The notes below the pieces were generated by a model. That model searched no databases, was not told where the DNA came from, and saw only the letters and a list, made by a program, of their open reading frames with translations. From Candidatus Latescibacterota bacterium (GTDB taxonomy: Bacteria > Latescibacterota > UBA2968 > GCA-2709665), in the NCBI GenBank assembly GCA_965248435.1, contig OZ252100.1:2688001-2752000 (forward strand): 64,000 nucleotides of DNA. Direction: 5' to 3'. The position numbers were made by a program, and so were the translations under genes. Every line of letters begins with the position of its first letter. Position 1 is the first letter of the stretch. Below, in pieces: positions 310 through 36,768 of the stretch.

Positions 310-410
310 GACTTGCCTCCCTTGTATGTTCATCCGGGAAATCCGTGCCCGATTCTCGAGCCCGTAGAACTTTACGGCTTATGGAATATGATATGGATCT
401 TACAGCCGCC

Positions 411-1118
411 TCACTTCTCCTCAGCTCGCACCGTGATCCTTACCGCGTAGAGATTGAAGTGTGCATCCATCCACCAATTCTCTCCCGACCCGGATTCAAC
501 ACTTTCATGCTCGAGCTTGGTCCCTTTGCCCGGCATACTGATATGGGGGTCGAGCTGCCCATAGCCCATCACGGTGATTTTGCTGCAGTCGGGCATGTCG
601 AAGTGTGCGCTAACGAGGCCGGAATGCCGGTTCCCCGTGTCGAACTTGTCACTTGCGCCCCACCCGTAGAGGTGCTCTCCCCATAGGTTGTTCACTTTGA
701 ATCGCACCCCAGGTCGCGCCAGATTCCACTCCAGAGGCTCCCCGTAGAGCAGTATCGTTGCCGGCGGAATGCAGGGACTCCCGATCACGTCCACACCGAT
801 GATCGGTTGTTCCTCTTCGATCGTCAGCGCACTGAAGGGCGGCAGATCCATCTCCATGCCTTCCGGATGCGGACCCGTGCCGGTTTCCTCTCGTCCCAGC
901 TCACAGTTGCAGTTCGGATATTGGAACGGAGCGAGGTACTCGTGTTCCCTCCGCGTGTAGACCCGCCGGGTTTGCTCGATCCCCTCCTTCGCGATCCGCT
1001 GGATCTTGCGCTCCAAGGGTGTCATCTTCCCGAGCTCGGGGCGATCCGGGTTGTGAATGCGTACGCGGTCTGGCGTGTCCTTGTGTGGCTTTAAGCGTGT
1101 GGGTGCAACAGTGCCCAT
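411..1118 (-). CDS. Hypothetical protein (235 aa), unknown family
   Basis: ATG with AGGAGAAGG RBS; reading frame conserved in the adjacent paralog. Confidence 0.85.
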   Translation of the reverse strand: MGTVAPTRLKPHKDTPDRVRIHNPDRPELGKMTPLERKIQRIAKEGIEQTRRVYTRREHEYLAPFQYPNCNCELGREETGTGPHPEGMEMDLPPFSALTIEEEQPIIGVDVIGSPCIPPATILLYGEPLEWNLARPGVRFKVNNLWGEHLYGWGASDKFDTGNRHSGLVSAHFDMPDCSKITVMGYGQLDPHISMPGKGTKLEHESVESGSGENWWMDAHFNLYAVRITVRAEEK

Positions 1119-23010: not shown

Positions 23011-23460
23011 TTATTGTCCGCTCTGCTTCTCGATTCTGTCTTCAAGCCTGGACTGCAGCGGAAGAAACACAGCATACGCCCAAACGATCGCATAGAAGAG
23101 CGTAACGGTCGCCGTCGCGATTCCGGGCCCTAGGGCATCTACTTGGTCTGAAAGTTTAGGGAACTGAGCAATATTCATGATACCGACCAGGAACCCGATC
23201 CAGCCGGCACCGATGATATAGGTCTTGGCGCGCCCCCATCCACGAGCCGCGTGTCTCAATTCTTCCACGGTCAGCTGCGCTGATAAGACGGCTTTCAGCA
23301 TCGTTGGAATACTCACGTGGGCAATGAGAAGGGATCCAATCGTAATGAAGAGAACAACGATAACGGAAGGGACATCAACAAAGTTGATGAGATGTCCGCC
23401 ATTAAATATCCCCATGACGATGACAACCATCGTTAGGATCAGCCCTATTACACCCTTCAT
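23011..23460 (-). CDS. Short MotA/TolQ/ExbB-family membrane protein (MotA-like)
   Basis: FVDVPSVIVV after TM1, GWIGFLVGI, LGPGIATATVTLFYA, FLPLQSRL; 149 aa; AAGGAGG RBS. Confidence 0.7.
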   Translation of the reverse strand: MKGVIGLILTMVVIVMGIFNGGHLINFVDVPSVIVVLFITIGSLLIAHVSIPTMLKAVLSAQLTVEELRHAARGWGRAKTYIIGAGWIGFLVGIMNIAQFPKLSDQVDALGPGIATATVTLFYAIVWAYAVFLPLQSRLEDRIEKQSGQ

Positions 23461-30062: not shown

Positions 30063-30131
30063 ATGCTTCGCAGGACGATCGGTAGTGATCAAGGTCTACG
30101 TTGTTTCCAGCAAAAACAGGCCTAAATTGCC

Positions 30132-30160
30132 TGTTACCTTTTCTTGTAGATCGCATCTAA
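30132..30160 (+). promoter_or_regulatory. Putative ECF-type autoregulatory promoter
   Basis: TGTTACC-N15-CATCTAA upstream of the ECF gene, resembling the ECF TGTAAC/CGTCTAA pattern. Confidence 0.4.
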
Positions 30161-30204
30161 ATCAGTGACCGCCGACATCAGCAGATTGCCAACGGGGATG
30201 CGCA

Positions 30205-30759
30205 GTGGAAACACAAGCCGATCTTACGCTGATTGTTGCCTGCCAAAACGGAGACCCCAGAGCCTTCCAGAAAGTCTTCGACATCTACAAGGACAGGATC
30301 TACGCGCTTTGCAGGCACATGGCGGGAAACCCCGACGACGCTGAGGACCTGGCTCAGGAGGTCTTCATCTCCGCGTTCAAGAACATCGGCACCTTCAGGG
30401 CCGAGGCCTCCTTCGGCACCTGGCTCTACCGTATCGGCGCCAACCGATGCCTCACCGAGCTCAGAAAACGCACCCCAACCTTTCGGTCTTTCGAAGCCCT
30501 GAGTGACGTGGAGAAGTTGCCTCACGCACCCAACCCGGAAGACCTCGTCGTGCGCAAGGAACTCTCTGACCGAGTGGAGGCCGCCGTGGCCGCGCTGCCC
30601 GAAAACCTGCGGCTCCTCTTTGTGCTCGGTACGCTCGAAGGCATGCGCTACAAGGAAATCGCCGAAATCGTCGACTGTTCTGAAGACGCCGTGAAGATGC
30701 GCATCCATCGCGCGCGTAAGCGGATCCGCGACACCCTCAAGCCTTACTTAGAGAATTGA
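30205..30759 (+). CDS. ECF RNA polymerase sigma factor
   Basis: DAEDLAQEVF, FGTWLYRI, region 4 YKEIAEI...VKMRIHRAR. Confidence 0.93.
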   Translation: METQADLTLIVACQNGDPRAFQKVFDIYKDRIYALCRHMAGNPDDAEDLAQEVFISAFKNIGTFRAEASFGTWLYRIGANRCLTELRKRTPTFRSFEALSDVEKLPHAPNPEDLVVRKELSDRVEAAVAALPENLRLLFVLGTLEGMRYKEIAEIVDCSEDAVKMRIHRARKRIRDTLKPYLEN

Positions 30760-30773
30760 AGGGAACCCAACCG

Positions 30774-31202
30774 ATGAACTGCTCTACCTGTGAACGCATC
30801 CTGTCGGCCTACATCGACGACGAACTCACGAACGAGGCGCGTCTCGAAGTGGAAGCCCACTTCGACACCTGCGAGCGCTGCCGCAAGGACTATGAATCCC
30901 ACCTGCTGGCCTGGGAAGCGGCCGGAGGCCTTCGCACGGGATCCGCACCCGAAGGCCTGTGGAGGGCCGTCGAGTCCGAGGTCCAGCAAAAGGGCACAGC
31001 CACCACGACCGAAGAACTGGCGCTCGTTGTCCGTGGCCTGGCAGGGGAGGTGCGCGACCTGAAGCAGGCGGTGGAATCTCTGCGCGCGGACCTGGAATCG
31101 GAACTGACGGAGGCACAGGAAGGCGATTCTGAGCGCGTCCGCCGGTTTCATCAATTGAGAGTCTGGAGCGAAACACCTTCCAGGGTCGAATCCGCAAGAT
31201 AG
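30774..31202 (+). CDS. Soluble zinc-finger (zf-HC2/ZAS) anti-sigma factor with coiled-coil tail
   Basis: MNC, LSAYIDDEL, HFDTCERC (HxxxCxxC); no TM helix; heptad-like LAGEVRDLKQAVESLRADL. Confidence 0.85.
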   Translation: MNCSTCERILSAYIDDELTNEARLEVEAHFDTCERCRKDYESHLLAWEAAGGLRTGSAPEGLWRAVESEVQQKGTATTTEELALVVRGLAGEVRDLKQAVESLRADLESELTEAQEGDSERVRRFHQLRVWSETPSRVESAR

Positions 31203-31259
31203 AGATACAAGACCTGAGATGCCAGGTGAGGTCTATCGGAATAGTTAGAGGAGACTGAC

Positions 31260-32294
31260 ATGGCAGAATCGAAAACAAAGGAAGAGGCTAGCGGGGACGA
31301 GACTCCAAAGGAGCGGATTGTCACTTACGACTTCAAACACCCTGCCCGGGTCTCAAAAGATCAAATGAGGACCCTGGAGAATCTGCATTCCAACCTGGCG
31401 CGGATGATGTCCTCCTCCTTTTCCACGTTCCATCGCTCCATGGTGGATGTAGACATCAAGTTCGTAGACCAGACAACCTACGCAGAATTCATCATGTGGC
31501 TCTCCAATCCCTCTTGTTCATACACGTTTGTGCTCGAGCCCCTGGGCGGGCCCGCCATCATCGACATACCAATGGGGATGGTTTCCGCGTTTATCGATCG
31601 TCAGTTCGGGGGGACGGACGATCCGCCGCCCATGCCGCGCGTCGTGACCACCATCGAACGAATCATCATGGCTCAGGTCATCAGAAGAATGATGGCCGAC
31701 CTGGAAGCCACGTGGGAACCGTTGATCAAGACTCAGGTGTCCAATGCGGAGCTGGAGACCAACCCGGAATTCATGCAGGTGGCGGCGCCTGGAGACACGG
31801 TGGTCCTTATTGCATTTGAGGTAAACTTCGCCGAGGTTGACGCTGCAGATCGGAAACCGGGCACGCATCGGATCAGCAGAGGCAACCGGCAGCTTTGGCC
31901 TAAAGATGATGAACGCCAACGAGTGATCAGCCTCTGCTATCCTTACTTCACTCTTGAACCGATAATGAACTATCTGAACGTGCAGACGTGGGCCGGGCGG
32001 GCGGGCGGCAGGCGGGGGCGAGAGGAGACTCGCCAGAAGCGGCTGGAGCAGTTAAGAGGCATCCAAACAGAAATCCGGGTTGATTGGGGCCTGGGTGAAG
32101 CTTCGCCGAAAGAAGTGGCCGACCTCCGTGTCGGAGACACGATCGTTCTGGATACCAGAACCGATGACCCCGGCGTCGTATATGTAGGGGGCCAGCCGAT
32201 CTTCCTTGCCCGTCCGGGCCTCAGCGCCCGGAACCATTACGCGGTTGAATTGCTCCGTTCGCTGAGTCAAGAGGAGGTAAGAGATCATGTCTGA
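31260..32294 (+). CDS. fliM: FliM-like flagellar switch protein
   Basis: YDFKHPARVSKDQMRTL, QTTYAEF, ETNPEF, SLCYPY, C-terminal SPOA (LRVGDTIVLD). Confidence 0.88.
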   Translation: MAESKTKEEASGDETPKERIVTYDFKHPARVSKDQMRTLENLHSNLARMMSSSFSTFHRSMVDVDIKFVDQTTYAEFIMWLSNPSCSYTFVLEPLGGPAIIDIPMGMVSAFIDRQFGGTDDPPPMPRVVTTIERIIMAQVIRRMMADLEATWEPLIKTQVSNAELETNPEFMQVAAPGDTVVLIAFEVNFAEVDAADRKPGTHRISRGNRQLWPKDDERQRVISLCYPYFTLEPIMNYLNVQTWAGRAGGRRGREETRQKRLEQLRGIQTEIRVDWGLGEASPKEVADLRVGDTIVLDTRTDDPGVVYVGGQPIFLARPGLSARNHYAVELLRSLSQEEVRDHV

Positions 32295-32595
32295 GGAAAA
32301 GGACAGAGTCAAGACTCGTGAGGTCGATCCGAGCTGGCCCAGGGATCTGGATGCCCGTCTTCAGCGGCTTGGAAAGGCGGGCTTGGAAGTGTCTGTCGTC
32401 CTGGGTAGTACGAAGCTGCCCATCGAAGAGATCGTAAACGCAGAGCAGGGCACGCTCTTCGAACTGGACCGGATGAGCGGGCAGCCGATGGACATCCTGG
32501 TCAACGGAACGCCGTTCGCGAAGGGAGAAATCGTCATCGTTGGGGACCATTTAGCGGTCCGCATCAATGAGCTTCTCGCGCCCGAAGAGATGTAA
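32287..32595 (+). CDS. fliN: FliN-like SPOA protein
   Basis: LEVSVVLG, ELDRMSGQPMDILVNG, AKGEIV, AVRI. Confidence 0.85.
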   Translation: MSEEKDRVKTREVDPSWPRDLDARLQRLGKAGLEVSVVLGSTKLPIEEIVNAEQGTLFELDRMSGQPMDILVNGTPFAKGEIVIVGDHLAVRINELLAPEEM

Positions 32596-32606
32596 GGAGA
32601 ACACCG

Positions 32607-33611
32607 ATGACCAAAGGAACCGAGACATCTGCCTCAGGTCGAATGCTACAATCAAGCCAGGTTGCAGACATCCCCAAGGGCGCAAAGCCAGCACCCTGGA
32701 AGCCCGCTGTCTTGACAGGCCAGCGGACCTACCCACCCCTCGAGATGCAGCTCGCGCAGCACAAAGAGGCTGCTGAGAAAGCGAGGGAGCCTAAACCTGC
32801 CCGCGAGCGACAGACGGCGCCTCCTGAGCCTCAGGACGGGGGGCCGATTGCTCCGGATGAGTCGATGGAACAGATCGCCGCGCGCAGGCCAATAGACGTA
32901 GCAAGGGCAGTAAGTACGCTGCTGATGCAGGCGGATGGCGAAAGCGCCGGCCTTCCAGCGGACCTGAAAGTTGCGATCCTGATCGTGGGCCTCGGCTCCG
33001 ATCTTTCAGCCGGTGTAATCAAATACCTGGCCGAACCGAAGATATCTCAGATCGCCCGTGCCGTCGCGGAGCTCGAAAGCGTCACCACCCGGCAGAGAGA
33101 CGACGTCTTCGACGAAGTCAAGCATCTGATATCTGGGAATCACCTTCTCCAGGGGGGAACTGCCTTCGCTCGGAACCTACTCGAGAAGGCGCTCGGTGAA
33201 CGGAAGGGACGGGCGATGATGTGGCGGGTGAGCGGAACGACCGAAAGAAAATTCGATTTGTTCCGAAACATCGATCCTGAACAAATCGTGTCCTTCATCG
33301 CGAGGGAACATCCGCAGACGATCGCCCTCATCCTGTCGCAGTTGGATGCGAAACAGGCAGCAGGGGTGCTCAACGGTCTCTCAGAGGAACTTCAGGATGA
33401 CGTGATCCTCCGCATCACCCAGATGGAGACCATTTCTCCCGAGGCGCTCAGTAGACTCGAACAGGGCCTGGCGGAGGACATCCACGCGATTCTGGCGGGT
33501 CAAGTCGAGGTAGGTGGGCAGAAAGCTGCAGCCGAGATTGTAAAGCAGGCGGAAGTCCTGCGCCAAAAAAGAGAGGAATCTCAAAATGCCCACGAAAAGG
33601 AAGGCACCTGA
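32607..33611 (+). CDS. fliG: FliG-like protein (N and M domains, no C domain)
   Basis: KVAILIVGLG (FliG-N), GG..FARNLLEKALG, EHPQTIALILSQL (FliG-M); ends shortly after VGGQKAAAEI. Confidence 0.85.
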   Translation: MTKGTETSASGRMLQSSQVADIPKGAKPAPWKPAVLTGQRTYPPLEMQLAQHKEAAEKAREPKPARERQTAPPEPQDGGPIAPDESMEQIAARRPIDVARAVSTLLMQADGESAGLPADLKVAILIVGLGSDLSAGVIKYLAEPKISQIARAVAELESVTTRQRDDVFDEVKHLISGNHLLQGGTAFARNLLEKALGERKGRAMMWRVSGTTERKFDLFRNIDPEQIVSFIAREHPQTIALILSQLDAKQAAGVLNGLSEELQDDVILRITQMETISPEALSRLEQGLAEDIHAILAGQVEVGGQKAAAEIVKQAEVLRQKREESQNAHEKEGT

Positions 33612-33864
33612 GCCCAGGGCAACGGCGCCCAATCGGGCCGCAGAAGTAGAAATGGACGTGAGCGTGGAACTCGGTCGCGTTCGCGTTCCCCTGGAGCGAC
33701 TCCTGACCTGGAGAGAAGGATCTACACTGGAGCTTTCCAAGGTATCAGGCGATCCAGCCGACGTGCTGGTCAACGGCGAACCGTTTGCCTGGGGCGAAGT
33801 CGTGACCGTTGGTGAAAGTTTTGGCGTTCGGTTAACGAAGATCCTGAACCGGGATGCTGTTTAG
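33586..33864 (+). CDS. fliN: Second FliN-like SPOA protein
   Basis: VSVELGR, GSTLEL, DVLVNG, GEVVTVGESFGVRL. Confidence 0.85.
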   Translation: MPTKRKAPEPRATAPNRAAEVEMDVSVELGRVRVPLERLLTWREGSTLELSKVSGDPADVLVNGEPFAWGEVVTVGESFGVRLTKILNRDAV

Positions 33865-34218
33865 GTGCTCCAACATCGACAGCATCTCCTCGGCTTCCTG
33901 CCTGTGACCAGCGGCCTCCTGATCGGCGCCTGTCTCGTCTACTGCGCCGTCTGGTGGATCCCCCACCCCATGACGATTGCCGATCCTGACTGCAGCATCA
34001 CCTGCTGGGCCTACTGCGCCACGCAGAGCCCTTTCTGGGGCACCCTGACCGCGGTCCTTGCAGCCGGTCTCTGTTTTGGCGGCATCCTGATCCTCCTACG
34101 CAAAGAATACGGTATTGAGACCAGTCTTGTCCTCGGTATCCTCACCCTGCCCACAGGGCTCCTCGCGGTCGTCCCCTTCGCCTTCAACCGCTGGTCGCTC
34201 AGTCACCGAGAGGCCTGA
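33865..34218 (+). CDS. Small membrane protein (about 3 TM), hypothetical
   Basis: GTG directly after the fliN stop; hydrophobic segments; CxxxCxxxC loop. Confidence 0.55.
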   Translation: MLQHRQHLLGFLPVTSGLLIGACLVYCAVWWIPHPMTIADPDCSITCWAYCATQSPFWGTLTAVLAAGLCFGGILILLRKEYGIETSLVLGILTLPTGLLAVVPFAFNRWSLSHREA

Positions 34219-34269
34219 GAGAACCCCGCGTCCGCTCAAGCAAGAATCCCAAAAAGTGATGATGTAATG

Positions 34270-35529
34270 CTATCGGTAGGGTAGCGGCTCTGGGTCCAGC
34301 CATCGACACGCTCTGTCTTTGATCGCCCAGGTCGTGAAGAAGTTTCCCGCTGGAGTGTGGTGTTGATGGCCGATATAGTAACGATCCAGGTAGGTGTCGA
34401 TGTCTGTGTTGAACTGGCTGTACTCTCTAACAAACGCCTCCCGCATATCGATGACTGGAAAATCCCGGTTCTCGAGCCATTCCCGAAAGGACCGGTCGAA
34501 CCTCGGCTTTCCAGCCAGTTCGGCCGCCACATTCCCGCGGCAAAACGAAAGCATGAGCAGAAGCTTCTTGCCGGTTTCCTGAGTCAAGGCTTCGACTCGC
34601 TCCACAACATACCGGGTTGCAAAAAGAGCGGCCTCGGTATGGAGATCAACGATCTGGGCATACAGGTCGCCGTCGGAGCCCTGATCAAGGGACATCCCGA
34701 GGCCAGCGGCTGCAGCTGTGGCCACCTCGTGGAAGGACTTCTGATCTGCTTTTGTGGAGGATTCGGAGGCCTGCATCCTCCGACGCAGGTTTGGAACAGG
34801 TCCGGGGAAGGTGTCAAGATCGACCTCCTCTTCACCCGGCCTGCCCTCCCCCGGCCTGAGGGCTTCGACCTGGGCAACGACCAGCTTCAGCACCGGGTCA
34901 TCCTGGTATGCCTCCCATACAAACTCTGAGTCACAGAGGTCATAAACCGCTTCGGGCGTGCCGCTCGGGTTCTCGACCTCCTCACAGGTGCCCTTGCCGA
35001 GGTCGACCTTCAAGTGCGGGAGCGTAAACCTGGGCACGATGTCCATTCGGATCGATTGCCAGGCGTCCAGGTTGCGGAAATGGTCGTCGTCGAAAATATT
35101 GAGAATGATGTACTCCGCACCTGAATCCATCTCTACCCTGCACATGCGACGATAGGCCTGGTAGACGCTGCACCCCCCAACGCCGTAATTTCGGATGGGC
35201 TCCTGGATGTGTGCAGCGAGGTATTCCTGCCAGGTTTCACCGTCACTGACCTGGTGGCCGTGGGTAAAGCTGTCACCGTAACTGTGGATGCGACACGGTC
35301 GATCCGAAAAATTGACCACGCGCCGTGCTCCGTCCGATTCGTAATTGTAAAACCCTTTCGAACCCTCGATGCTGTTTTCACGCACGCCCGAGGTGTGTAC
35401 CCACCCAAGGTCCGCGTCAAACGCCCTGAAGTCTGACTCTGCCGCTGATCCATTGACGGCAGGCCGCACGAATCGGTCTATCATCTCCCGGCTGGGAACC
35501 AGGGAATCCAAATACGCCTTCCGGTCCAA
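34270..35529 (-). CDS. SGNH/GDSL hydrolase-like protein
   Basis: YGDSFTHG, NYGVGG, HHTPAGN. Confidence 0.7.
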   Translation of the reverse strand: MDRKAYLDSLVPSREMIDRFVRPAVNGSAAESDFRAFDADLGWVHTSGVRENSIEGSKGFYNYESDGARRVVNFSDRPCRIHSYGDSFTHGHQVSDGETWQEYLAAHIQEPIRNYGVGGCSVYQAYRRMCRVEMDSGAEYIILNIFDDDHFRNLDAWQSIRMDIVPRFTLPHLKVDLGKGTCEEVENPSGTPEAVYDLCDSEFVWEAYQDDPVLKLVVAQVEALRPGEGRPGEEEVDLDTFPGPVPNLRRRMQASESSTKADQKSFHEVATAAAAGLGMSLDQGSDGDLYAQIVDLHTEAALFATRYVVERVEALTQETGKKLLLMLSFCRGNVAAELAGKPRFDRSFREWLENRDFPVIDMREAFVREYSQFNTDIDTYLDRYYIGHQHHTPAGNFFTTWAIKDRACRWLDPEPLPYR

Positions 35530-35643: not shown

Positions 35644-36768
35644 TCAGATCAGTCTGCCCAGTACCTCGAGAAGTCGTTCCACATCCGCGCTTCCGTTGAA
35701 CGCGTGTGTCGCGATCCGCATCCGTCCGCCATATCCATCACAAAGGACGCGCTGCTCCACCAACCTGTCTTTGAGAGACTCAGCTTCTTCGTAAATGCAA
35801 CATGTATTGCCCGAACGCGCTTCCCGCTTTTGCGGGCTGATCATGGTCAGGCCGAGTCCCTCCAGACCCGCATAGACCTGCTCTGAGAGATCCCTGGCAT
35901 GGCATTCGATCCGTTCCATGCCAATCCCCAGCAGCACCTCGAGGGACTGATCAAGGTACATCACCACCAGCTTGGCCACATTCCCCGGCTCGAGTCGCTC
36001 CGGCATCGGCTTTTCCCCGACCTCGGCCGGGCGCTCCGGCGACTGGAGCGGCCATATGTCCACATTGTGCCAGCCGAAACAGGTCGCGGCTGTCCTGGCT
36101 TCCGCCCGTTCGCTCAGGTAACAGGGGGCGACTCCGTGCGTCGCGAGCATCCACTTATAACTGCTGCTCACGGTCAAGTCGGTCACATCCGCCGGGACGG
36201 TCAACACACCTGAGGCGTGTGTGGCATCCACGGCCAGAAGCACATCGTTCAGGCCTTCCGAAAGCCGCCGCAGGTTCAGGCACTGCCCCGTGTAGAAGCT
36301 GACCTGGCTGACAGCCATCACGCGTGTTCGATGGTCCACAGCCGCGAGAAGGTCCTCTTCGTGAACGATCAGATCCTTGTGCGGCACCATTCTGACCTGC
36401 ACGCCTCGATCCTTCAGCTGTTTCCAGGCATAAACCACGGAGGGAAATTCGAGGTTGGACGTCACGACATTGTCGCCGTCCCGCCAATCCAACCCCCTTG
36501 CCAGCCAGTTCATACCTTCGGCCGCCGAGGGCATGAAGGCGACCCTCTCTGCCGGAACACCCCACAGCTCGCCCATTCGCTGCCGACATCGTGCCACACG
36601 CGCGATAAGCTTATCCCGCCCCTCCCACGAGGCACTCTTCCACTCCTTGAACGACCGATAAACCTCGTCGTGTGCCTTCAACCAGGGCCCCTCGCCGCCG
36701 GAGCCGAGATGCGTCACGCCCTCCAGTCCAACGAATTCGTCGGGTGAAATCAGGGGTTCTATGGTCAC
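35644..36768 (-). CDS. Class V PLP-dependent aminotransferase/cysteine desulfurase-like
   Basis: EFPS, VDATH, SSYKW (PLP lysine). Confidence 0.88.
   Translation of the reverse strand: MTIEPLISPDEFVGLEGVTHLGSGGEGPWLKAHDEVYRSFKEWKSASWEGRDKLIARVARCRQRMGELWGVPAERVAFMPSAAEGMNWLARGLDWRDGDNVVTSNLEFPSVVYAWKQLKDRGVQVRMVPHKDLIVHEEDLLAAVDHRTRVMAVSQVSFYTGQCLNLRRLSEGLNDVLLAVDATHASGVLTVPADVTDLTVSSSYKWMLATHGVAPCYLSERAEARTAATCFGWHNVDIWPLQSPERPAEVGEKPMPERLEPGNVAKLVVMYLDQSLEVLLGIGMERIECHARDLSEQVYAGLEGLGLTMISPQKREARSGNTCCIYEEAESLKDRLVEQRVLCDGYGGRMRIATHAFNGSADVERLLEVLGRLI

Follow-up and report, generated by a model that had tools for sequence, protein, structure and literature searches.

What do paralogues of the flagellar switch proteins do when they stand behind a sigma factor of the extracytoplasmic function (ECF) type and its anti-sigma factor? 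Textbooks treat flagellar switch proteins as motor parts with a single purpose and ECF sigma factors as regulators of envelope or redox stress. The question is raised by the genome of a Candidatus Latescibacterota bacterium (5.67 Mb, completeness 97.5%), in which we analyzed a stretch of 64,000 nucleotides (nt) from contig OZ252100.1, hereafter the window, that covers genome positions 2688001-2752000. Window positions 30133-34218 of the plus strand form one compact operon in which a promoter is followed by genes for an ECF sigma factor, an anti-sigma factor, a FliM-like protein, a FliN, a FliG-like protein, a second FliN and a small protein with three hydrophobic segments. Judging from sequence, and with about even confidence, we favor the reading that the operon is an autoregulated, ECF-induced accessory switch cassette that acts on the resident flagellar motor, of which the window carries a torque-less, CheY-blind form.

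Organization of the operon

Gene identities were assigned by Pfam and NCBIfam profile searches of the open reading frames (ORFs) of the window. The operon comprises the following features (lengths in amino acids, aa).

30133-30160 (+): ECF-type promoter, GTTACC (30133-30138), 17-nt spacer, TCTAA (30156-30160)
30205-30759 (+): ECF (group 4) sigma factor, 184 aa; Sigma70_r2, r4_2, TIGR02937
30756-31202 (+): soluble zinc-finger (HxxxCxxC) anti-sigma factor with coiled-coil tail; zf-HC2, PF13490
31260-32294 (+): FliM paralogue, 344 aa, FliM middle domain and SpoA/FliMN_C domain; PF02154, PF01052
32287-32595 (+): FliN paralogue 1, 102 aa, SpoA domain; PF01052
32607-33611 (+): FliG paralogue, 334 aa, FliG_N and FliG_M, without FliG_C; PF14842, PF14841
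33586-33864 (+): FliN paralogue 2, 92 aa, SpoA domain; PF01052
33865-34218 (+): ORF of 117 aa with three hydrophobic segments; no Pfam or NCBIfam match

The gaps and overlaps between successive genes amount to -4, +57, -8, +11, -26 and 0 nt. An earlier reading of the bare sequence, the original prediction, had named these genes and their tight packing on the plus strand; the ORFs were found in place and their families were confirmed.

The sigma factor matches Sigma70_r2 with 69.2 bits, r4_2 with 55.4 bits and TIGR02937 with 110.5 bits (cut-off 42.9). It has regions 2 and 4 and no match to region 3, as is typical of group 4. With the sigma factors of orthologous loci it shares 54-73% identity, and with any other sigma factor of its own genome at most 36%. 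Its ORF is overlapped over 4 nt by that of the cognate anti-sigma factor, and a predicted promoter motif of the autoregulatory kind precedes it. The anti-sigma factor matches PF13490 with 41.4 bits. Its true start is likely the ATG at 30774, giving a protein of 142 aa, because orthologues begin with MNC and the database copy has this length. The N-terminal 80 residues form a predicted zinc-binding anti-sigma domain with conserved Cys/His ligands and match the profiles of RsiW (5wuq_C, E=0.0011), RslA (3hug_B, 0.008) and RsrA (0.92). No transmembrane segment was found (highest Kyte-Doolittle 19-mer 0.69). Behind the domain follow a coiled-coil-like helix of about 28 residues that resembles Lpp and Smc and is almost invariant across families, a variable acidic linker and a basic tail. 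In an alignment of 24 sequences C9, C42, L90, G94, L95, A96 and R110 are invariant, and C12, H35 and C39 are conserved to at least 90%.

Promoter and predicted regulon

A motif resembling GTTACC/GTAACC-N17-TCTAA, exact or one base off, precedes the orthologous sigma gene in all 17 loci compared (N17 in 16 of them, N18 in one), and TGTTACCTTT...TCTAA is a frequent form among them. The motif lies 29-51 nt before the sigma start, or 138 nt in a single locus; in the window the end of TCTAA is 44 nt from the start codon. A terminator-like hairpin at 30115-30135, whose 3' arm enters the -35 element, may insulate the operon from the upstream gene.

Using a position weight matrix built from 16 promoter sites, we scanned the whole genome and obtained 32.9 bits for the operon site and 21.8 bits for the next best. 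The exact pattern GTTACC-N17-TCTAA is present in two copies, the second inside a gene, and a looser pattern occurs five times, which is about the chance expectation. When sites of 12-22 bits were inspected, the 21.8-bit site had no convincing gene behind it; a 14.5-bit site located 64 nt upstream of an ORF consisting of FliG_C only (genome 2296320-2296631(+)) is suggestive and within noise. In five relatives the exact pattern is present one or two times each, always at the module. In G082 a second exact copy (L226 (C440), 994-1021(-)) lies 42 nt upstream of a gene for a 184-aa FliM-domain-only protein (397-951(-)); for the second exact sites of G094 and G105, either no clear gene follows or the site falls inside an ORF. 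Contigs of run X6 give a weak hint: in the stretch listed, the changes affect the spacer of the promoter and the letters directly behind the -10 element, with none listed in GTTACC or TCTAA.

The recognizable regulon is, as predicted from these motifs, the operon itself plus one further FliM-type gene in one genome (G082). Since the motif marks essentially its own operon only, the C-ring paralogues are likely the output of the sigma factor. This fits one of two options in the original prediction, namely the one in which the ECF factor has the C-ring proteins as its output.

Conservation and specificity of the linkage

Orthologues of the anti-sigma factor were detected at E<=1e-30 in 18 of the 168 genomes of the phylum, the source genome included, and two weaker, tail-bearing anti-sigma factors raise this number to 20 genomes from families f1, f2, f3 and f4. 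Complete C-ring genes directly follow the sigma/anti-sigma pair in 17 of the 19 loci fetched from relatives (three families). The other two carry a truncated fusion of a receiver domain (REC) to FliM as their only C-ring gene (G086) or a FliG_C::MotA/ExbB fusion instead (G079). The latter, a protein of 399 aa (L084, 7743-8942(-)), joins rotor-face and stator-type channel domains. Two gene orders were observed: sigma, anti-sigma, (REC::)FliM, [FliM], FliN, FliG, FliN in f1 and f2, and sigma, anti-sigma, FliN, FliN, FliG, FliM in f4.

Scanning metagenomes with the anti-sigma alignment returned 12 tail-bearing loci, some of which duplicate genome loci, so that not all are independent. C-ring genes follow in 9 of the 12, and the contigs of the remaining three stop within 380 nt. 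A scan with a single anti-sigma sequence returned one locus, that of G004. Among 68 control loci that match the generic zinc-finger part only, one had any match, and this was to the receiver::FliM query alone. The neighborhood search suggested by the original prediction thus revealed a linkage that is both conserved and specific; it is kept in relatives of three families and is not unique to this genome. Short contigs from the marine/seawater metagenome runs X5, X7 and X8 match pieces of window positions 30100-34300 with 0-1 differences, and contigs about 90-97% alike come from run X6, which is labelled organism B.

The module goes together with flagellar genes. FlhA is strongly matched in 17 of 20 module genomes vs 46 of 148 other genomes, and the three module genomes without such a match still have FliF and/or flagellins. 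These are G005 (80% complete, with FliF), G161 (with flagellins) and G038, whose genome is complete in one contig and has a short FliF frame and nine flagellin matches; neither FlhA nor FliP was found in it, and its module sigma gene appears frameshifted. Many flagellated relatives are without the module, and G001, of the same genus, has neither module nor FliG nor FlhA. All five relatives checked have further FliM copies that lie outside the module. The module is an accessory of flagellated members and no core flagellar part, and in the genomes searched it was not found without flagellar genes.

A separate flagellar gene set in the same genome

We located one FliF (about 3.546 Mb), one FlhA (3.527 Mb) and a MotA-type gene (3.535 Mb) elsewhere in the genome (genome positions in this section). 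A canonical FliM at 1784528-1785577 starts with MPDILSQDEIDALL and carries the CheY-docking peptide LSQDEIDALL. Three FliG proteins of 338 aa possess all three domains; two are encoded in tandem at 2545898-2546914 and 2547389-2548405, the third at 4870988-4872004. Further FliN-type genes, eight flagellin matches and rod and hook genes complete the set. Counting the module, the genome has 4 FliG_M, 5 FliM and 7 FliMN_C matches. The flagellar genes are dispersed, and fliG does not adjoin fliF. The switch genes of the operon are therefore additional to a separate flagellar set and are not the only ones of a dispersed flagellum, the case that the original prediction had set against itself.

In this 97.5% complete genome no match to the CheW domain and one weak match to the MCP-signal domain were obtained, which points to a motor without classical CheA/CheW input. 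The canonical FliM retains its CheY-docking peptide although no CheW domain was matched. Housekeeping-type fliG is also multi-copy in relatives G004, G038 and G105, with up to about 6-11 FliG-type matches, and the copies within one genome are nearly identical.

The genome also encodes isolated pieces of switch proteins: two stand-alone FliG_C-only proteins of 103 and 232 aa (2296320-2296631(+) and 2513186-2513884(-)), a 571-aa protein with part of FliG_M and FliG_C (31623-33338(+)) and a 186-aa FliM-domain-only protein (3186008-3186568(-)). Five ECF sigma factors have fused C-terminal domains of flagellar type (943471-944376(+), 946970-948121(+), 956158-957315(+), 959277-960122(-) and 5324598-5325200(+)). 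The fusion types are sigma with FHIPEP (322-408), sigma with FliM (twice), sigma with FliG_C and sigma region 4 with FliG_C, all above Pfam cut-offs. The fusion-sigma family is large (329 matches) and its C-termini include FliM, FliG_C, tRNA-synthetase, ankyrin, HEAT, TPR, T2SS-F, radical SAM and other domains; some matches bear NCBI names of metagenome-assembled genomes of Poribacteria, Planctomycetota and Thermodesulfobacteriota. The fusions of sigma factors to FliM and FliG_C at first seemed to prove docking on the motor, an argument that we gave up because the family carries so many unrelated C-terminal domains.

Reduced and fuller versions of the module

All four switch paralogues of the window fall below the NCBIfam equivalog cut-offs. 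The FliM paralogue scores 148.3 bits with PF02154, 51 bits with PF01052 and 206.8 bits with TIGR01397 (cut-off 219.6). Its N-terminal CheY-docking peptide LSQxEIDALL is absent, with no remnant in any frame; it reads GGTD vs GGxG in relatives and contains a 26-aa insert. FliN paralogues 1 and 2 reach 74.9 and 77.4 bits with PF01052 and 73.9 and 71.9 bits with TIGR02480 (cut-off 84.05). The FliG paralogue scores 90.7 bits with PF14842 (FliG_N), 106.4 bits with PF14841 (FliG_M) and 168.9 bits with TIGR00207 (cut-off 226.7). It has an intact EHPQ motif (REHPQT in the alignment), and its domains predict binding to FliF and FliM. It stops just past the Gly-Gly linker; no PF01706 (FliG_C) match and no FliG_C remnant in any frame were found. 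Ahead of FliG_N it has a module-specific N-terminal extension of about 110 aa with a W-x-P motif and a conserved helix, which is common to modules of both gene orders and not present in housekeeping FliG. Module cores are 55-60% identical to the housekeeping FliG and FliM of their own genome.

Relatives encode fuller versions. The syntenic operon of G004 encodes a sigma factor and an anti-sigma factor that are 73% and 65% identical to those of the window, followed by a receiver-domain::FliM fusion, a second FliM, a FliN, an FGE-sulfatase-domain::FliG fusion with N, M and C domains and two more FliN. G082 has two module sets, one with a double-receiver FliM. Nearly all module FliMs retain the CheY-docking peptide, which in the fusions stands directly behind the receiver domain. 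The window copy is without REC, docking peptide, FGE and FliG_C. The original prediction that the components lack their motor interfaces thus describes this copy and not the module in general, as most relatives keep FliG_C, FliG_N and the docking peptide and have a receiver domain in addition.

The reduced state recurs. G105, of family f4 and with the other gene order, has a FliG of N and M domains only, a FliM without docking peptide and intact ORFs throughout, and its FliG is truncated at a different point from that of the window. G105 is an independent occurrence of the reduced state, which is not a one-off accident. In genus g28 it is FliG_N that the module FliG is without. All modules have FliM, two FliN types and FliG_M in common; from the losses of FliG_N and FliG_C it follows that neither the FliF-facing nor the stator-facing domain is indispensable.

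We compared module and canonical switch proteins in trees, as the original prediction had proposed. Housekeeping FliG has short branches and module FliG long ones; the end branch of the window FliG measures 0.9 vs 0.25 for that of G004, and its identity to the G082 orthologue is 43% vs 64%. The FliM and FliG cores of a module cluster with housekeeping copies of their own lineage and not with the modules of other lineages (Shimodaira-Hasegawa-like approximate likelihood ratio support 95-100 in quick trees). The module FliG of G094 pairs with the solo FliG of its own genome (97), and in the FliG trees the window FliG belongs to the module clade. A single module-FliM clade is rejected by the approximately unbiased test (p=4.5e-9; group defined by gene location, test carried out once the tree was known). 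We had considered that the module FliMs might form one ancient clade, which the trees and this test ruled out. Sigma factor, anti-sigma tail, promoter and FliG extension are nevertheless common across lineages. An apparent FliM::FliG fusion of 501 aa in G038 (L112, 2510-4015(+)), with the FliM middle domain in the first ~196 residues and FliG after it, groups with module FliGs.

Together these features mean that resident motor genes have repeatedly replaced the module copies or converted them. Such a pattern is expected if the module proteins have to remain compatible with the motor of the cell; conversion for no other reason than sequence similarity may be an alternative cause of the clustering.

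A switch cassette for the resident motor and its alternatives

Our preferred reading is that the operon encodes an accessory switch for the resident motor. A cytoplasmic signal would inactivate the anti-sigma factor, possibly, by analogy with RsrA and RsiW, by oxidizing its thiols or by damaging the zinc site in another way. The released sigma factor would transcribe its own operon, and the FliM, FliN and FliG paralogues would then exchange into, or dock on, the resident C-ring and change the behavior of the motor. The fuller versions in relatives may serve as an alternative switch that carries its own receiver: receiver-fused FliM and FGE-fused full FliG suggest an alternative motor input, and this genome has no CheA/CheW pathway. 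The window FliG would offer domains for binding FliF (N) and FliM (M, with EHPQ) and no stator-facing C domain. Reduced subunits, if incorporated, would be torque-less and signal-blind, and we predict that induction of the reduced form would not drive the motor but weaken it, stall it or give it another use. We favor a tie to the motor over a free-standing scaffold because relatives keep the interfaces, the module is found only in flagellated genomes and its cores track the resident copies.

Several observations weigh against this interpretation. The position weight matrix, having been built on autoregulatory sites, may overlook weaker members of the regulon, and counts of co-occurrence are overstated, as the genomes are kin and not independent. 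The lack of FliG_N in g28 and of FliG_C in the window copy and G105 also agrees with a role outside the rotor. The fast evolution of the window FliG is a picture that relaxed constraint would give too. There is also decay among relatives, with frameshifted sigma genes in G038 and G151 and nothing beyond the truncated REC::FliM in G086.

The alternative that survives best is a signaling scaffold, a possibility that we consider unlikely and still take seriously. Here a core of FliG_M, FliM and FliN, free or on the motor, would bind the anti-sigma tail, and its state of assembly would gate the sigma factor, which makes the C-ring paralogues regulators and not output. Every module having just this core in common speaks for it, and so do the strongly conserved extra helix of the anti-sigma factor past the sigma-binding domain and the N-terminal extension of module FliGs in both gene orders, which housekeeping FliG does not have. 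The fusion of ECF sigmas of the same genome to FliM, FliG_C and FlhA-type domains likewise hints at flagellar domains as sigma-regulating modules; these fusions lose weight through the tRNA-synthetase, ankyrin and HEAT domains in the same C-terminal position, which are not flagella-specific. The scaffold also meets two further difficulties. If the only strong promoter of the sigma factor is that of its own operon, a purely regulatory cargo leaves no output, and relatives retain a CheY-docking peptide and a stator-facing domain for which a free scaffold has no need. The original prediction had proposed a co-opted scaffold or signaling complex, and of this the extra gene set, the conserved linkage and the option of an ECF output have held up; a module-wide loss of interfaces and independence from the motor have not.

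A related and rather improbable reading makes the basal body itself a hub of sigma signaling in this lineage, which has flagella and no CheA/CheW. The cassette core of FliG_M, FliM and FliN, equipped with the module-specific N-terminal extension of FliG, would capture the anti-sigma tail, so that assembly or loading of the motor or C-ring could be read as ECF activity, and the fused sigma factors would be hard-wired versions of this arrangement. A complex prediction of FliM, FliN1 and FliN2 with anti-sigma residues 60-148 gave a score of 0.00 and weighs neither way; by its N-terminal extension, the module FliG looks like a better candidate partner.

Neutral decay of the window copy is possible and not favored, and we rate it somewhat lower still. 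The cassette would have lost its function here and be eroding, with at most the sigma/anti-sigma pair in use. Relative to G004 the window copy has lost REC, docking peptide, FGE, FliG_C and the second FliM; the 26-aa insert in FliM, the rapid evolution of FliG and the frameshifts or truncations in G038, G151 and G086 would fit the same course. Against decay stand intact ORFs, clean deletions and G105 as an independent repeat of the reduced architecture. All six ORFs are open, with coupled starts and stops, and the deletions have left no remnants. The EHPQ motif and SpoA domains are intact, and sigma factor, anti-sigma factor and FliNs are still 62-73% identical to those of G004. Contigs of a relative, of about 96-97% identity, that cover FliN1 and FliG have no indel among the differences listed, which is a weak point against erosion.

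We see little chance for a FlgM-like checkpoint, in which the anti-sigma factor would dock on the FliM and FliN paralogues and be exported through the flagellar type III gate, coupling the sigma factor to assembly. SpoA-domain proteins are export sorting platforms in flagella and injectisomes, the soluble anti-sigma factor is genetically tied to such proteins and the module occurs only together with flagellar genes. On the other hand, the anti-sigma factor is of the folded zinc-finger type and not FlgM-like, and genes for FliH, FliI and a chaperone are not in the module. Lastly, that these are the sole switch genes of a functional flagellum would agree with the dispersed flagellar genes and the separation of fliG from fliF and has practically no standing, being ruled out by the canonical FliM, three full-length FliGs and other FliN elsewhere in the genome and opposed by a window FliG without torque domain.

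Neighboring genes

The 117-aa ORF with three hydrophobic segments begins directly at the FliN2 stop and has five database homologues of 53-97% identity. We place it outside the conserved module because it has no match in any of the 19 related loci. Upstream of the operon lie genes unrelated to the module (ceramidase-like, RidA-like, DUF2961), and downstream, on the other strand, a GDSL-like gene and a class-V aminotransferase gene, likewise unrelated. A class-V aminotransferase with a kynureninase-C domain is found just past the module both in the window (35644-36768(-)) and in G038 (L040, 4025-5344(-)), in different orientation relative to the module.

The original prediction had stated that the 64 kb contain no other flagellar or chemotaxis genes. 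For the families searched this largely stands: in searches with FliG_C, FliG_M, FHIPEP, FliM, FliMN_C, FliF, flagellin, Flg_bb_rod, CheW, MotA_ExbB and MCPsignal nothing else in the window than the module matched, apart from one ORF named below; FliH, FliI, FliPQR and FlhB were not searched for. It is qualified by one ORF of 149 aa (window 23011-23460(-)) with a weak match to the MotA/TolQ/ExbB family (29 bits, above the cut-off), which lies 7 kb upstream of the operon and adjoins an ABC-ATPase gene and a UPF0014 gene.

Comparison with known systems

As far as we have seen in the literature searched, all parts of the operon come from known families, and their combination and variants are new. 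The flagellar switch FliG-FliM-FliN of E. coli, Salmonella and Thermotoga shares FliG_N, FliG_M with EHPQ, the FliM middle domain and the SpoA domains with the module. The window copy differs in being a second set behind an ECF sigma/anti-sigma pair, with scores below the equivalog cut-offs, no FliG_C or docking peptide and an N-terminally extended FliG. Sigma-28 (FliA) and FlgM are likewise a sigma/anti-sigma pair genetically coupled to flagellar structure genes, with a soluble anti-sigma factor. In contrast, the window sigma factor belongs to group 4 and has no region 3, its partner is a zinc-finger protein without a FlgM family match, the recognizable target is its own operon and not the late flagellar genes, and only part of the flagellated relatives possess the module. 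The anti-sigma domain matches RsiW, RslA and RsrA with its Cys/His ligands conserved, and the protein is soluble like RsrA; unlike them it adds a conserved coiled-coil helix and a basic tail, and its cargo consists of C-ring paralogues.

Specialized rotor parts have precedents. EpsE is a motor clutch that acts on FliG. YcgR is described as a motor brake that also acts on FliG (PMC10140304). The effect predicted here for a torque-less FliG, a loss of rotor-stator coupling, would be similar; YcgR and EpsE are unrelated proteins that bind FliG or MotA, whereas the agent proposed here is a truncated FliG paralogue. In Borrelia a second FliG has a specialized, non-essential role beside the assembly FliG (FliG1/FliG2; PMC7225975). 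In our case a whole FliM/FliN/FliG set is under its own sigma/anti-sigma pair, with fusions (REC, FGE) or domain losses. ECF sigma factors with regulatory C-terminal extensions are a known concept (PMC8999054), and the sigma factors of this genome that are fused to FliM, FliG_C and FHIPEP-type domains resemble them; the window sigma factor has no extension and uses a separate anti-sigma factor. We found no description of an ECF/anti-sigma operon with FliM, FliN and FliG paralogues, although the supplementary neighbor tables of ECF classifications might list it, and none of REC::FliM or FGE::FliG fusions. In the main text of an ECF re-classification (PMC7826278) the terms flagell, FliM, FliG and FliN occur only in one unrelated mention, and in PMC7406223 "FliM" appears only where FlgM is meant.

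If our reading is correct, placing a second set of switch proteins under the control of an ECF/anti-sigma pair would add a new level to motor control or to gene regulation coupled to the motor. The lineage is uncultured and marine and has flagella without a CheW-domain protein, and how such a motor is steered would be directly testable. The natural truncations of FliG and FliM could also be used as probes of C-ring assembly.

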